Source: Halorutilales archaeon Cl-col2-1 (GTDB lineage Archaea; Halobacteriota; Halobacteria; Halobacteriales; Afararchaeaceae). From it: a stretch of 64,000 bases of DNA. The notes below the pieces were generated by a model. It was not told the origin of the DNA and did no database searches. It was given only the letters and a program-made list of their open reading frames with translations. Position numbers and translations under genes: made by a program. This document shows positions 12,267 to 18,021 of the stretch, piece by piece. The stretch is from assembly GCA_041891055.1 (NCBI GenBank), contig CP169074.1, positions 1,216,001-1,280,000 on the forward strand. Reading direction: 5' to 3'. How positions within the stretch are numbered: position 1 is the stretch's first letter; every line of letters begins with the position of its first letter.

Positions 12267-13181
12267 ATGGAGTGTTCTAACTGCAGCCAGCCCGCGGTTC
12301 TGAGACAGGCGTACAGCGGCAAGCATCTGTGTGAGACGCATCTCTACGAGTCGGTCGAGAAACGCGTCAAACAGAGAATACGTGAAGACGACATCCTACA
12401 GGGCGACGAGACGTGGGTCGTGGGTCTGAGCGGTGGAAAGGACTCATCTGTTCTCCTCGACATAATCGCGCGCGTCTTCGACGACAACCCCTCTGTCGAG
12501 ATAGTCGCCCTTACACTCGACGAGGGGATAGAGGGATACAGGGACGAGAGCGTCAAGGAGGCGGAAAGGCTGTGTGATAGACTCGGGATTAGACACGAGA
12601 TCGTGGAGTTCGACGAAGACATAGACGTCACGATGGACGAGGTCGTCGACCAGAAGCCCCAGAGACAGGCGTGTTCCTACTGCGGTGTCTTCAGACGCAC
12701 ACTCCTCAACAGACACGCCGAACGTCTCGGCGCGACGAAGCTCCTGATGGGACACAACCTAGACGACGTCGCACAGACCGCCCTGATGAACTTCCTCGAC
12801 GGCGACGTGGAGAGGATGTCACGCCATTACCGTGCGTCTCTGTCGCCGAAGAACGAGGAGGGCGACTTCGTGAGACGCGCGAAGCCTCTTCGGGACGTGC
12901 CCGAGAAGGAGATCGCGGTCTACGCACAGCTCAAGGATCTCCCCGTCTACCTCGAGGAGTGTCCCAACGCAGAGGGCGCGACGCGGGGCGACATACGTGA
13001 TCTCCTAATGGAGTACGAACGTAAACACCCGGGTACTCGCCACTCCCTGATGAGCTCTTACGAGAAGATAGCCGAGAGGCTCGACTGGTCATCACAGGAT
13101 CTCGTGGAGTGTGATAGATGTGGCGAGCCGACTACAGGAGATCTGTGTCGGGCGTGTTCTATGTTAGAAGAAGTTGGTTAG
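12267..13181 (+). CDS. ncsA: tRNA 2-thiolation protein NcsA (TtuA/Ctu1 family)
   Basis: Terminal Zn fingers, SGGKDS PP-loop, CSYCGVFRR, GHNLDD. Confidence 0.92.
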   Translation: MECSNCSQPAVLRQAYSGKHLCETHLYESVEKRVKQRIREDDILQGDETWVVGLSGGKDSSVLLDIIARVFDDNPSVEIVALTLDEGIEGYRDESVKEAERLCDRLGIRHEIVEFDEDIDVTMDEVVDQKPQRQACSYCGVFRRTLLNRHAERLGATKLLMGHNLDDVAQTALMNFLDGDVERMSRHYRASLSPKNEEGDFVRRAKPLRDVPEKEIAVYAQLKDLPVYLEECPNAEGATRGDIRDLLMEYERKHPGTRHSLMSSYEKIAERLDWSSQDLVECDRCGEPTTGDLCRACSMLEEVG

Positions 13182-13219: not shown

Positions 13220-13603
13220 CTATGTCAGTTTATAGACTACTAACCCCAGTAATAGAGATATAATCATCCCAATATAGACCCCTATAAGAGAGCTTATTCT
13301 AAGTAATTCTCGTGAGGCTACGAAGCTCAAGGGAACTACGACCAACATAATTACAAATACGACTATGAGAAATACTATCAGATCCCCTTTCGACTGGTCT
13401 GTTCTGAATCCCAGAACTATACGACGTCCTAAGAAGGTAAAGGTTCCCAGCCCAGTTCCTGCGAGAAGACTAAACTGAACCGGATTATGGTTTACGTAGA
13501 GAAGAAGGCTCTGACCAACCCCGGCTAATACCCCGATCAAAAGACTGTCCCCCCAGAGTCCAAAATGTCGACGTAGCCAGGACTGGTTCTTAGACTGTGT
13601 CAT
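13220..13603 (-). CDS. Small 4-TM membrane protein (candidate immunity protein)
   Basis: Very hydrophobic, non-acidic, AT-rich; last gene of the accessory islet. Confidence 0.6.
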   Translation of the reverse strand: MTQSKNQSWLRRHFGLWGDSLLIGVLAGVGQSLLLYVNHNPVQFSLLAGTGLGTFTFLGRRIVLGFRTDQSKGDLIVFLIVVFVIMLVVVPLSFVASRELLRISSLIGVYIGMIISLLLGLVVYKLT

Positions 13604-13676
13604 GGCTAAGTGTCCAGGAAAATAGATGGGTCATGTAGGTTGATTCTATTCCACTTGTCATACTGAAGGACAAAAA

Positions 13677-14174
13677 TCATATCTGTACCATCCTATCACT
13701 CGGACAGCTTTCGAACGACGGATCCGAGACGACACCTGTACATCCTGACGGATCGCCGTTCTGGTAAAACTTTACACGGACTCCATCGGCTCCTGGATTT
13801 ACTTCGGCTGTGACGGTGTACTTAATCCCGTAGTTGTCCCTACAGCTTTCAGTGCCAATAATGTTAGTTGTGTTGACGTTTACAGAGTAGACGCCGTCGC
13901 CTGTTTTCGATATGCCAGATACCAATGCCGCTTCCGAACCGTTTTTCCAGACGATATCAGTCTTGTTAGCCATAACTGTGTGATTCGGTGTCCCGGAGAG
14001 GTAACTCGGATACGACAGAGACAGATTCGACTCACAACCGGCGTCGATTTGTGTGACATCGACCGAAGATACCGACGCTGTCTCATCACTGCCCGTACCC
14101 AGACTTAATCCGACGCCGACGGCTACGATCAGTCCTATGCTTAGAACGCCGAGAAGCTTTCGGCTAATATTCAT
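13677..14174 (-). CDS. Secreted or membrane-anchored Cys-containing hypothetical protein
   Basis: N-terminal RK plus hydrophobic signal; 4 Cys; beta-rich. Confidence 0.65.
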   Translation of the reverse strand: MNISRKLLGVLSIGLIVAVGVGLSLGTGSDETASVSSVDVTQIDAGCESNLSLSYPSYLSGTPNHTVMANKTDIVWKNGSEAALVSGISKTGDGVYSVNVNTTNIIGTESCRDNYGIKYTVTAEVNPGADGVRVKFYQNGDPSGCTGVVSDPSFESCPSDRMVQI

Positions 14175-14235
14175 CGTCTGGTTTACGTAGATTCATGCTT
14201 TACTGTCTTCACTCATTGAGCAGTAGCTTCCACCA

Positions 14236-14370
14236 TTACTGCTTAATGATAGGGCTAGAAGTCTCGGCAGAACCTACCGTTACCATCGGCGTAGCTAATG
14301 CACCCGACGCTACTCCCGTTTTTCTCAGAAAGCTCCTCCGTCCCATACTATTCTCGTTTTCTTCGAACAT
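14236..14370 (-). pseudogene. Truncated Tat precursor (signal peptide only, 44 aa)
   Basis: MFEENENSMGRRSFLRKTGVASGALATPMVTVGSAETSSPIIKQ*; not in the ORF track; directly under the duplicated promoter. Confidence 0.7.
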
Positions 14371-14380
14371 ACAGTTCCAC

Positions 14381-14526
14381 AGTAACACTCCGTTTATTTA
14401 TAATTTCGGTCTAGAATATGTTTCAAATTATTAGATATTTCTACAGTATGAAATCTTCTCACTATATGAAATGATTCCGCTCAACGAAGCTGTTTGACTG
14501 AGTGAAAGCTGTCTCAAAATGTGAAA
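14381..14526 (-). promoter_or_regulatory. Duplicated 146-bp promoter/operator block, copy 1
   Basis: Near-identical to 15910-16055 (offset 1529); minus-strand GAAATTATAAATAA BRE/TATA about 25-35 nt before ATG 14370; TGAAA at 14449, 14467, 14503, 14522. Confidence 0.85.
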
Positions 14527-14715
14527 TAGATATTCATACTGAAGAAAAGTCATAAACTCTTCGGATTTATGAGTATATGTAAGTCTTGAACCACACTCAT
14601 CCCAAAATCGCTGATTTTGAGGGCTCGTAAATCTCCAATTTGTAAAGATCAACCAAAGATTAATGAATAGATAAGGTCTCAGATCTTTCAGTAGCAACGG
14701 TGAATGTATCTCCCT

Positions 14716-15063
14716 CTATGAAACATTTTCTAGTGAAAGTTTGGATAAAATCCCCGCAACACCAACTCCAACAATAAATGATACTCCCATAGAAACTGAG
14801 TGATTTACCATCTGACTCGGTATAAAAGCTGAAAAAATCATTAGTAAGAATTCGATCACACGCCTAGTACGTGACTTATGAAAGTCAAAATACCCATATA
14901 ATAATATTATAAGATAGCCATATAAAATCCCAAAAGCCAAACCTAAAATAGAAATACCAACCTCTTCAACAAAAAGCAGAATTAGTCCGGTTATAAGTGT
15001 AATTAAACCTACATATAGACCCAACCGTTGTGTGAATTCTTCAGTTAGTTTCATTACACACAA
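14716..15063 (-). CDS. Small 4-TM membrane protein (candidate immunity protein)
   Basis: Very hydrophobic and AT-rich; begins a few nt after the Tat precursor stop. Confidence 0.65.
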   Translation of the reverse strand: MCVMKLTEEFTQRLGLYVGLITLITGLILLFVEEVGISILGLAFGILYGYLIILLYGYFDFHKSRTRRVIEFLLMIFSAFIPSQMVNHSVSMGVSFIVGVGVAGILSKLSLENVS

Positions 15064-15069
15064 TAGAGA

Positions 15070-15906
15070 CTATAAGACAATAAAATCGGGATCCTTTCCT
15101 GCATGATCATTTACTGATGCGACAGGCATAGTTTCCGAAGCATCAGCCAAGTATTTATTCGATATTACTGTACTGTACATAGGTGTGTTAGTTATTGGGG
15201 TATCAAAGTCCTTTGCTCCGACAGTAAAATCCTTATCCGTGTATAAGGATAGTACTGTTCCAGCTATAATTGAGATTACAGTTCCTATTCCCCCACCTAA
15301 GAAATAACCAATCAATCCCGCGAGAGTATTTTTTGATAAAGTATCGATAGACTGTGTTAGTTCAATAGCATCTCCTGCGTAGAAATGGTTGTAATCTGAA
15401 TAATATGCACATGATCCTATGGTTTTGGAAAAACTCTCATGTCTTCTAACCAGTGTTGAGTAGTCATAGCTGGCTAACTGGAGATGAGGACTGGGGTTAA
15501 AATCCATGAGGGTAAAATCGTTTTGCCAGCTTTTGCTACTGGCGGGATTGGGTTCATTGTTATCTTTTCTCTTATTACTCTGTCCCTCTCTTCTAGGATT
15601 GCCATTTTTAGATCCCAGCTTAACATGATCTATTCTGCCTTTTCTCTGCCCTTTCTTGAATTCCTTAAACAAATGAAACACATCATTTACTCCCACGCGG
15701 GCTATACGTACTGATTGGTTATCTACTAAAATCTTCCTTTTAACATCCATCCCTTCATCGCTACTTGCCCGACTCATCTTCTTCCTATTTGGGAGACCTG
15801 TCAAAGGGACTGTCGCAATACCTAAGCTCTTCAGAAACTCACGTCTGTTTGAGCCGATTTTATCTTTTTCCTTGTCTTCTTTCTCTGCCATGTCTGATAC
15901 CACCAT
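15070..15906 (-). CDS. Tat-exported precursor with hydrophobic Gly-rich hairpin (halocin/bacteriocin-like candidate)
   Basis: SNRREFLK Tat motif; K/R-rich pro-region; TLAGLIGYFLGGGIGTVISIIAGTVLSLY segment. Toxin function is inferred. Confidence 0.6.
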   Translation of the reverse strand: MVVSDMAEKEDKEKDKIGSNRREFLKSLGIATVPLTGLPNRKKMSRASSDEGMDVKRKILVDNQSVRIARVGVNDVFHLFKEFKKGQRKGRIDHVKLGSKNGNPRREGQSNKRKDNNEPNPASSKSWQNDFTLMDFNPSPHLQLASYDYSTLVRRHESFSKTIGSCAYYSDYNHFYAGDAIELTQSIDTLSKNTLAGLIGYFLGGGIGTVISIIAGTVLSLYTDKDFTVGAKDFDTPITNTPMYSTVISNKYLADASETMPVASVNDHAGKDPDFIVL

Positions 15907-15909
15907 AAT

Positions 15910-16055
15910 AGTAATACTCCGTTTATTTATAATTTCGGTCTAGAATATGTTTCAAATTATTAGGTATTTTCACAGAATGAAACTCTTCCACCATATGAAA
16001 TGATTCCGCTCAACGAAGCTGTTTGACTGAGTGAAAGCTGTCTCAAAATGTGAAA
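15910..16055 (-). promoter_or_regulatory. Duplicated 146-bp promoter/operator block, copy 2
   Basis: Direct repeat of 14381-14526, lying between the regulator stop and the Tat gene start. Confidence 0.85.
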
Positions 16056-16062
16056 CAGTCGA

Positions 16063-16824
16063 CTACGGGTACTTAGCCTCCGACTCTGCGAAGTATGACT
16101 CGAATCTCTCACGTCCCCATTCAGTAGCCTCTTCCGAGGTATTTTCGACGAGTGCAACCAGACTGCTGTGGCTGTAGGCTCCAATGAGAAGCTTTTCGTC
16201 GGTGAGTACGAGACCATGGGGTATACTTCCGTCGTACGCGCGGAGTTCGAAGTCTCCTGTCTCAACTGTCTCCGAAAGCTTATCGGGGTACTCATCTTCG
16301 AGTACTCGCACTAAAGGATTCTCCAAGACTATCTCCGCCTGCATGCCTTCAGTTATACGTCTGTGGAAGACCGTGACATAAGTTGGAGTTACGACAGGGG
16401 AGAAGCCGCGAACGTATGACGCTTCCTCAACGGATTCTATGAGACGTTTTACCGGATAATGTGGTCTTCCGTCTTTCGGAGTGTAGACAGTCGATCCCGA
16501 GAGTCTACTGAGTTCGTCGACAGTCTCTCCCACGTGTTCAAGAAAGGGTTCGAGTTCTTCGACTGTCTTTATATGGTGTGTGAACTCAGACAGCCCATCG
16601 AGAACAGCCTCGCCTTTCGGAGTGAGTCCGAAAGCATCGTCATCTCTGCGTACGAGATTACGGTTTCTCAGAAACTTCATCTTACGGTGGAGAGTCGACC
16701 TCGATCCATCGACGTGATCCTCCAGATCATCCATCTGGTCTTTTCCCTGTCTAATTCCGTCGAGAATTTCTGCGGAGTCGAAGAGTCCATGAAGGTAGTC
16801 GATATCGATGTCCCGACCAGACAT
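16063..16824 (-). CDS. Haloarchaeal wHTH transcriptional regulator (DUF1724/FilR1-like C-terminal domain)
   Basis: SRSTLHR..L....LV....FGLTPKG; RGFSPV; PHGLVL; A.EWG..FESY..E. Confidence 0.85.
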   Translation of the reverse strand: MSGRDIDIDYLHGLFDSAEILDGIRQGKDQMDDLEDHVDGSRSTLHRKMKFLRNRNLVRRDDDAFGLTPKGEAVLDGLSEFTHHIKTVEELEPFLEHVGETVDELSRLSGSTVYTPKDGRPHYPVKRLIESVEEASYVRGFSPVVTPTYVTVFHRRITEGMQAEIVLENPLVRVLEDEYPDKLSETVETGDFELRAYDGSIPHGLVLTDEKLLIGAYSHSSLVALVENTSEEATEWGRERFESYFAESEAKYP

Positions 16825-16917: not shown

Positions 16918-18021
16918 TTAACGTATTACGTCGACGTTCGCGGAGTTCTTCTTCACCGAGTCGTCTCCGCCGTCACTCGTCGACGTCGTCTTGCTCGCGC
17001 TCGTCATCTCGGATCCGAGTACCTGCGAGCTCTGGACTCCGGTCATTATAGCCATCACACGTACCTTCGAGTCGTAGTCCTCCTGTATACGTGCTCCCCA
17101 GATGACGTTCGCCGACGACCCGAGACGCTCTGTGATGTTCTGTGCGATCCCCTCAGCCTCTCCGAGAGTGAGGTCGGGTCCTCCCGTGATATGGACGAGG
17201 CTGCCCGAGGCTCCGCGGTAGTCGACGTCTAAGAGCGGATGGTTGAGAGCGTCCTCGACGACTGCGTCTATCTTGTTCTTGTCCTGTGTCTCGCCGACGA
17301 GCATCACCGCGACTCCGCCCTGGTTCATGATAGTCGTCATGTCGGCGTAGTCGAGGTTGATGAGGCTCGGCTGTGTGATGGTCTCCGAGATCCCCTTGAC
17401 CGTCTCGGCGATTATCTGATCCATCACAGAGAACGCCTTGCTTATCGGAAGGTTGGGGACGTAGTCGAGGAGCCTGTTGTTGTCGAGGACGATTATCGAG
17501 TCCGCCTCCTTCCTCAGGTTTTCGAGTCCCTGCTTAGCCTTAGACGTCCTCGCGCGTTCGACGTCGAACGGCGTACTCACCATTCCGAGGACGATAGCGC
17601 CCTGATCCTTAGCTATCTTAGAGACGACGGGTGCGGCACCCGTACCTGTTCCGCCACCCATTCCCGCGGTGACGAAACACAGGTCGGCGTCCTCAAGTAT
17701 GTCCTTGAGAGTGCCACGCGCCATCTCAGTAGCGCGCTCACCCATCGAGGGGTCGCCTCCCGCACCGAGTCCGTTGGTGAGTGACTTGCCGACGAGTATC
17801 TTTGTGTCGGCTTCGATCATCTGAAGATGCTGTTTATCGGTGTTGATGGCGATTGTCTCAGCCCCCTCGGCACCGATATTATACAGGCGGTTTACAGTGT
17901 TGTTGCCCGCACCCCCACATCCGACGACCACTATGTTGGGGTCGCCGAAGTCCTCGGCGTTCTGCTTCATCTCCTTTTCCTTCTCGTCGTTTTCAAGAGC
18001 CTCTTGTACTATGTCTTCCAT
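16918..18021 (-). CDS. ftsZ2: Cell division protein FtsZ2
   Basis: [17 protein letters not shown] tubulin signature, SLINLDYAD; directly downstream of cdrS. Confidence 0.96.

Follow-up and report, generated by a model that had tools for sequence, protein, structure and literature searches.

A probable halocin-type antagonism locus built on an unannotated family of haloarchaeal proteins

Here we examine an AT-rich gene islet in Halorutilales archaeon Cl-col2-1, within a stretch of 64,000 nucleotides (nt) of contig CP169074.1 (positions 1,216,001 to 1,280,000; hereafter the window, whose coordinates are used throughout). The islet is probably a halocin-type antagonism locus, in which a precursor of 278 amino acids (aa) with a twin-arginine translocation (Tat) motif would be paired with a small transmembrane (TM) immunity partner, TM1, next to a decayed second unit (Table 1). 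The C-terminal domain (C-domain) of this precursor defines an unannotated haloarchaeal protein family. Taken as a whole, the locus is real, coherent, and partly new, combining a likely halocin-type layout with this family, a predicted operator array, and an orphan immunity-like gene.

According to the available parts of two sources, halocin production is near-universal in haloarchaea, and only three precursors (H4, C8, and S8) have sequences that are used in surveys (10.64898/2026.07.27.741052, PMC11509114). The new family occurs in 40 of 401 haloarchaeal genomes, roughly one in ten, and could thus cover some of the haloarchaeal antagonism that is still unaccounted for (C8-type domains occur in 22 of 151). 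The locus also offers testable parts, namely a predicted effector domain, three residues, a cognate TM protein, and an orphan partner with a candidate toxin (that of family locus L060), as well as a predicted site at which a very common and little-studied archaeal regulator subfamily may bind.

The precursor family, its membrane partners, and its regulator

Searching with the full-length precursor retrieved relatives in 15 of the 401 genomes, and a C-domain profile located 52 places in the 40 genomes mentioned above, with up to four per genome. The family comprises 240 clusters at 50% identity (E up to 0.001), or 150 at E up to 1e-10. In the window protein, the C-domain is marked by Cys166, His174, and His268 and by a Gly-rich hydrophobic helix hairpin at about aa 192 to 221. 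Conservation was assessed on 162 sequences (the listed representatives and some cluster mates), 86% of which hold a 19-residue stretch with a hydropathy above 1.5. An RR motif is present in 99 of the 140 members of at least 200 aa, many of the others appearing N-terminally mis-called. At every one of the 51 loci, the precursor gene has a lower GC content than the DNA around it, with a mean difference of 10 points.

The fold and profile checks that the first-pass annotation had proposed gave a C-domain model with a pLDDT of 86.8 and placed the protein in no known family; they gave no homology to halocin C8 (see below). The model consists of a five-strand beta sheet and a two-helix hydrophobic hairpin. 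Foldseek searches against PDB and BFVD returned nothing at an E of 0.001 or better, the best structural alignment reached a Z of 4.2 (rmsd 3.4, 74 residues aligned), and a PDB sequence search with the C-domain had a best E of 0.11. Among 20 representatives that were looked up, the named ones are called 'hypothetical', 'uncharacterized', or 'glycine zipper', and every named organism is haloarchaeal. The literature searched holds no account of the family; the tables of Makarova et al. 2019, which lay outside that search, may list it. Word-indexed protein searches found only two precursor relatives (and none of the 4-Cys protein discussed below), a genome-contig scan with the precursor confirmed nothing, and a tblastn search of plasmids with two C-domains came back empty. 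Two members, P0094 and P0124, look less acidic or have a Sec-like signal and possibly originate from non-halophiles. A weak match to the family profile (E 0.0055) lies on a second contig (G000:C2:72798-73355, plus strand).

The idea that the precursor comes with an immunity-like membrane protein agrees with what is seen throughout the family. As a partner we counted any same-strand open reading frame (ORF) of 60 to 160 aa with at least two TM segments within 250 nt downstream, in all 51 non-self family loci. Such a gene was found in 35 of the 51 loci, far above the background of 33 in 939 ordinary genes of the window's genome. When the loci are collapsed at 50% identity, 16 of 31 clusters have such a gene (49 loci, two with very short ORFs having been left out). 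The positive control, the halocin-C8-domain loci, gave 12 of 24 (one of 25 was unparsable). Moreover, the partners co-vary with their precursors: over 33 loci, partner identity is 93% where the precursors share at least 80%, 33% where they share 50 to 80%, and about 22% (noise) below 50%. These 33 partners form 21 unrelated clusters of 65 to 150 aa with hardly any soluble part. Related genomes are not independent, and the pairing counts are to be read as patterns rather than as P values. A small downstream cognate gene that co-varies with the precursor is the typical look of a toxin-immunity pair, and it is the look found across this family. TM1 is therefore a protein for which we predict, from these family patterns, the role of cognate immunity protein of the 278-aa precursor. 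A complex prediction of the C-domain with TM1 scored 0.00, its controls not having been folded.

Ahead of the precursor gene lies a repeat block of 149 nt (15910-16058), a second copy of which is found at 14381-14529. The near-identical promoters of the first-pass annotation are thus indeed duplicates, at 92% identity ungapped and 94% gapped, and its length of 146 nt needed correction. The copies consist of two identical sub-blocks around one diverged core, and they are the only two in the whole 2.06-Mb genome. Both hold six TTTCA-N5-TGAAA palindromes with an 18-19-nt period, followed by a B recognition element (BRE) and a TATA box, as judged by promoter geometry. In the first array, the palindromes start at 16055, 16036, 16018, 16000, 15982, and 15964 (zero to four mismatches per site). 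The transcript start of the precursor is likely leaderless. A chain of five sites scores 41-43 out of 50 at both arrays, whereas 500 shuffles of the AT-rich core never exceed 32. In a scan of the main contig, the twelve best positions all fall in the two array loci.

An independent test of the motif used the flanks of the 28 regulator homologs whose loci were retrieved from 151 genomes (the best match per genome, with the own genome and that of a sister lineage excluded). At spacing 5, these flanks contain 37 TTTCA-N5-TGAAA sites against 4.4 after shuffling (3-9 sites at other spacings). Of the 28 regulator loci, 22 contain the palindrome and 8 contain in-phase pairs; in two sets of control loci, the palindrome is present in 6 of 29 and 2 of 24. 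Given this enrichment in independent flanks, this regulator subfamily very likely has the palindrome as its site. The earlier label 'regulator-driven' fits the block well, as it is an in-phase palindrome array tied to the regulator family.

Homologs of the regulator are common (146 of 151 genomes), and some of them sit at halocin loci. One of the 28 closest adjoins a C8-type precursor and a 4-TM gene, and the family profile of the regulator matches 12 of 25 halocin-C8-domain loci. For the neighbors of the other regulators, the functional labels are presumptive. At locus L153, a regulator with the same pair of Pfam domains stands directly upstream, on the same strand, of a gene for a 283-aa ProC8-type precursor with a HalI domain. 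This is also the place given for halR, directly upstream of the halC8 precursor gene, in the available text of 10.64898/2026.07.27.741052, and a halR-type regulator is found in this position at the window locus as well.

Several scans were negative. A loose operator count (three mismatches, periodicity ignored) failed to discriminate, the upstream regions of the 51 family precursors hold no array comparable to that of the window, and scanning metagenome and genome contigs for the exact promoter pattern gave 0 matches and hence no third locus with the window promoter. A bacterial sigma-70 scan of the region stayed at chance level and is not relevant here. The sister genome encodes a low-GC paralog of the regulator (L205:91-876) that has no close match in the window's genome; it has no operator sites in 2.5 kb and adjoins a small gene, which we take to be rhodanese-like.

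A decayed second unit and the sister lineage

Two working cassettes had been proposed for the islet. The second one is down to a 44-aa signal-peptide stump, and no trace of a C-domain was found between 13181 and 14720. Nor does the 4-Cys protein behind the stump fit its former casting as toxin-like cargo. Its family, all-beta with four invariant Cys, is present in 30 of 201 genomes, and 27 of the 29 other loci are without a Tat precursor or small-TM array, the exceptions being L119/L143 and L207/L148. As just two of 29 sit in such arrays, the protein is a poor toxin candidate, though a subfamily may act as an outer accessory or immunity protein. A model of it found no Foldseek match. Two of the exceptional loci (L119:6000-8527 and L207:1662-6263) encode a second unnamed family of Tat precursors (295 aa, no Pfam match), followed by a 4-Cys protein and a 4-TM gene; the L119 precursor was considered as a member of the 278-aa family and rejected as belonging to a different one. 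The precursor at L207 is broken, and five small TM genes are arrayed behind it.

The last gene of the islet encodes TM2. Four TM segments had been given for both membrane proteins, which holds for TM1, whereas the hydropathy rule gives three for TM2. TM2 was also described as unrelated, and here the comparison points elsewhere: its N-terminal half is homologous to 2-TM proteins and in particular to the 68-aa partner of the family precursor at L060 (42% over 52 aa, E 6e-12; the top match above 349 decoys). From this homology, TM2 is likely an orphan immunity gene left by an earlier family member, and the second unit likely represents the decayed remains of an older precursor-immunity unit. Lone homologs of TM2 (65-70 aa, 2 TM), with no precursor alongside, are found in three other genomes, at L210:1498-1695, L211:1495-1692, and L216:1456-1668. 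A kinship of TM2 with the 4-TM gene of L119 was rejected, as there is no similarity.

The sister lineage, a genome of the same genus, carries the same islet at 97-98% identity, with 13609-14739 replaced by 585 nt of repeat DNA that we take to be insertion sequence (IS)-like. Two salt-lake runs from one study have the same junctions and are thus not independent of that genome. In front of its 278-aa gene, the sister promoter holds at least five of the seven substitutions that mark copy 2 in the window, so the two copies exchange sequence or have a recent common origin. Between window and sister, non-synonymous and synonymous substitutions number seven and three in TM1, five and three in the regulator, zero and one in TM2, and two and 27 in ftsZ, which are small numbers.

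Payload swapping under one regulator, as formerly envisaged, finds little in these data. The sister lineage has the same cargo, and neither there nor in the two salt-lake runs was a different one seen behind the window promoter. The proposed search for the promoter block in this genome and related DNA gave the two copies and the sister's, with no other cargo, and regulators rarely accompany such genes elsewhere (see below).

Comparison with halocins and competing explanations

The halocin C8 locus (halR-halC8; ProC8 = HalI + HalC8; TIGR04449, PF22862) resembles the window locus in several ways. Both have a Tat-tagged precursor of about 280 aa with a variable pro-region and a C-terminal hydrophobic domain, a same-strand upstream regulator of the winged helix-turn-helix (wHTH)-FilR1_middle type, and, in many family loci, a small downstream TM gene. 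A subset of both precursor groups also shares a junction motif, [VI][STGR][TVAIP]Q ahead of the C-domain, which occurs in 17 of 45 family members, 10 of 24 C8-type precursors, and about 4.5% of shuffles, having been picked by eye on the same sequences in which it was counted. On the other hand, the new C-domain is about 135 aa long, with a sheet, a hairpin, one invariant Cys, and two His, whereas C8 is a 76-aa Cys-rich peptide, and no ABC transporter genes follow the precursor unit in the window. An operator array like that of the window is absent from the five C8 intergenic regions examined. The halocin_C8_dom model (TIGR04449) matches 0 of 45 family members and nothing in the own genome, with an HHalign probability of 3.8%, and the HalI domain (PF22862) matches 0 of 45 as well (the control, L153, matches at 1.7e-48). 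A feature search had pointed to a cluster named halocin C8 (0.86), an identity that profile comparison did not confirm. In short, layout, regulation, and likely processing are like those of halocin C8, which bears out the halocin analogy of the first-pass annotation as far as layout and regulator family can tell, yet membership of the C8 family fails because there is no C8 or HalI domain.

Among the C8-type precursors (L150-L174), 12 of 24 are followed by a small gene with 2-4 TM segments and three more by genes of 46-59 aa. Such small TM genes may be unrecognized immunity genes besides HalI, and they merit attention in that role.

Other systems are more distant in kind. Halocin H4, whose TM region is reported in the available text to be essential for killing (10.64898/2026.07.27.741052), likewise comes from haloarchaea, is secreted by Tat, and has this TM region internally; H4 was compared by description only, there being no Pfam or TIGRFAM models for H4 or S8. 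Also compared by description was HFX_0892 (HmHapP) of Haloferax mediterranei, a secreted precursor that proteolysis makes antagonistic; its activity resides in a helical peptide at the N terminus, and the available part of the source describes no cognate TM partner (PMC12893001). With bacterial glycine-zipper toxins and class II bacteriocins with their immunity proteins, the precursor family shares the Gly-rich hydrophobic hairpin. Small TM immunity genes downstream and orphan immunity arrays are known from bacterial class II bacteriocins. Glycine-zipper models match eight of 45 family members at E up to 0.05, which is compositional, and do not match the window protein. The family differs from those bacterial systems in that its hairpin is set into a folded beta domain and in that Tat is the predicted export route. 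Polymorphic toxins, finally, combine a conserved N-terminal delivery domain with varied toxin domains, whereas here the C-domain is conserved and the pro-region varies, so the family, strictly speaking, falls outside the polymorphic toxins. As for orphan modules linked by repeats, the window holds a single repeat together with a stump and an orphan partner.

In the explanation that we favor, the HalR-family regulator would bind the six tandem palindromes before the TATA box and activate the joint transcription of precursor and TM1 from a leaderless start. Export by Tat and cleavage of the precursor would then release the C-domain outside the cell, where its hairpin would insert into the membranes of rival archaea, with the Cys/His/His site perhaps gating or stabilizing it. 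TM1 would block the C-domain in the producer cell. The second promoter would head a decayed older unit whose precursor shrank to a stump and whose immunity-like TM2 was retained, so that immunity would persist against a variant whose production has been lost. A bolder proposal would see here a widespread, unnamed class of haloarchaeal weapons (at least 240 clusters of Tat-exported precursors that have an effector of roughly 135 residues with an unmatched fold, an invariant Cys-His-His metal or catalytic site, and a membrane-inserting glycine hairpin, each with its own unrelated TM neutralizer), with new units in this genome entering behind a HalR-type regulator via the duplicated six-operator promoter and older immunity genes kept as an archive; as a package, we regard this as possible but doubtful.

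Critically speaking, several points weigh against an antagonism locus. The immunity proven for halocin C8 resides in the pro-region HalI and not in a TM gene, as given in the available parts of the sources (10.64898/2026.07.27.741052, PMC11509114), and the profile comparison with C8 precursors aligns the signal peptide only. The precursor matches no Pfam or NCBIfam model, halocin models included, and has no homology to a characterized toxin. A qualifying TM gene is missing from 16 of 51 loci (15 of 31 clusters), and none of the other family partners is significantly homologous to TM1. The regulator lies within about 3.5 kb in only 3 of the 51 other family loci, and 27 of its 28 closest homologs adjoin other kinds of genes. 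As to the window copy itself, it carries SNRREFLK, yet its h-region is weak (best 19-residue hydropathy 0.36), it has no TIGR01409 match, it is basic (pI 8.9), and the junction motif is absent; for these reasons it may be poorly exported or degenerate. In the sister genome, the precursor is interrupted by an insertion near its 3' end. Lastly, the C-domain residues are near-invariant across the family (Cys 154/155, His 149/158, His 131/132) and are more suggestive of a metal or catalytic site than of a simple pore-former.

That last point leads to the view that the precursor is a metal-binding or enzymatic surface protein, with Cys/His/His as ligands of Cu or Zn or as an active site and the hairpin as anchor, while the neighboring TM protein would assist in assembly or transport as part of ordinary physiology. 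Tat export suits folded, cofactor-loaded proteins, and this regulator type mostly adjoins non-toxin genes. However, a physiological helper would be expected to be one conserved family, whereas the partners are unrelated once precursor identity drops under 50%, and the loci are patchy, low in GC, and frequently broken, which makes this view improbable. Self/non-self signaling would involve no killing: the processed C-domain would be secreted as a signal or as a tag of identity, for which the small TM protein would be the strain-specific receptor. Cognate co-variation and high diversity fit receptor-ligand pairs equally, and the available text of one source links a halocin to DNA uptake (PMC6759562). 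The partners described above, with nearly no soluble part and so many unrelated clusters, are hardly receptor-like; orphan partners also persist alone (L210, L211, L216, and TM2) and behind a broken precursor (L207). Orphan persistence of this kind is typical of immunity genes, and we hold signaling to be quite unlikely.

The remaining alternatives concern the history of the islet. An active cassette exchanger, using the duplicated promoter block as a recombination site to swap payloads under one regulator, would be an add-on to the halocin-type explanation rather than a different function. The two identical sub-blocks flanking a diverged core, the copy-2 substitutions in the sister promoter, and TM2 as a sign of an earlier, different family member all suit it. 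With just two genome copies, a dead second cassette, no third promoter locus, and the same first cargo in the sister lineage, it seems unlikely. If foreign AT-rich genes had simply accumulated by chance at a hot spot of insertion, without any function in common, this could account for the stump, the MITE-like element between the units, the IS damage in the sister lineage, and the substitution counts of TM1 and the regulator against those of ftsZ. Such neutral debris could describe the present state of this copy rather than the design of the module: the pairing of precursor and TM gene and the link between operator and regulator recur in unrelated genomes, so that as a full account it is highly improbable.

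Setting of the islet

The genome is a 2.06-Mb haloarchaeal assembly with 55% GC, and the window has 55.7%. Against this, the islet has a GC content of 40.9% (13220-16060) and its core 36.8% (14380-16060), so that its description as AT-rich is borne out; it is likely an imported gene island. All features listed by the first-pass annotation were recovered on the minus strand and in their places; the full order is regulator, block 1, 278-aa precursor, TM1, dispersed palindrome, block 2, stump, 4-Cys protein, and TM2. Of the two flanking core genes it had named, the one called ftsZ2 is secure as an ftsZ gene, whereas the other has NcsA as its best match yet stays under the cut-off of that model.

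Table 1. Features of the islet and its flanks (window coordinates)
Feature	Position	Strand	Basis or remarks
NcsA-like tRNA 2-thiolation gene (flank)	12267..13181	+	Best match NcsA model, 408.6 bits, under its cut-off of 500
TM2, 127-aa membrane protein, 3 TM by hydropathy rule	13220..13603	-	N-terminal half homologous to L060 partner
4-Cys protein, 165 aa, all-beta, N-terminal anchor or signal	13677..14174	-	Four invariant Cys, six N-glycosylation sequons
Tat signal-peptide stump, 44 aa from ATG 14370	14236..14370	-	No effector domain in any frame
Operator array copy 2 with BRE/TATA	14381..14529	-	Sites 14526 to 14435; BRE/TATA 14409-14396
Dispersed palindromic element between the two units	14548..14642		Sequence, genome-wide counts
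TM1, 112-115 aa, about 4 TM	14716..15063	-	Start TTG 6 nt or ATG 15 nt past precursor stop
278-aa precursor	15070..15906	-	Twin-arginine motif aa 19-26, variable pro-region, C-domain aa 142-278
BRE (CCGAAA) and TATA (TTATAAAT)	15925..15938	-	Sequence; 26 nt ahead of ATG 15906
Operator array 1, six TTTCA-N5-TGAAA palindromes, predicted regulator sites	15950..16055	-	Motif scan
Regulator, 253 aa, HVO_A0261_N winged helix and FilR1_middle	16063..16824	-	Both domains above Pfam cut-offs
ftsZ (flank)	16918..18021	-	FtsZ model above cut-off

Two further ORFs, one of 88 aa (14431-14697) and one of 111 aa (15960-16295), were dismissed because they arise from reading through the repeat and the dispersed element. 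The latter (14548-14642), which we take to be of the MITE/REP-like kind, has the core AAATC-N3-GATTT; the main contig has 93 exact cores and the second contig 11, and several of them adjoin tRNA-like sequence.

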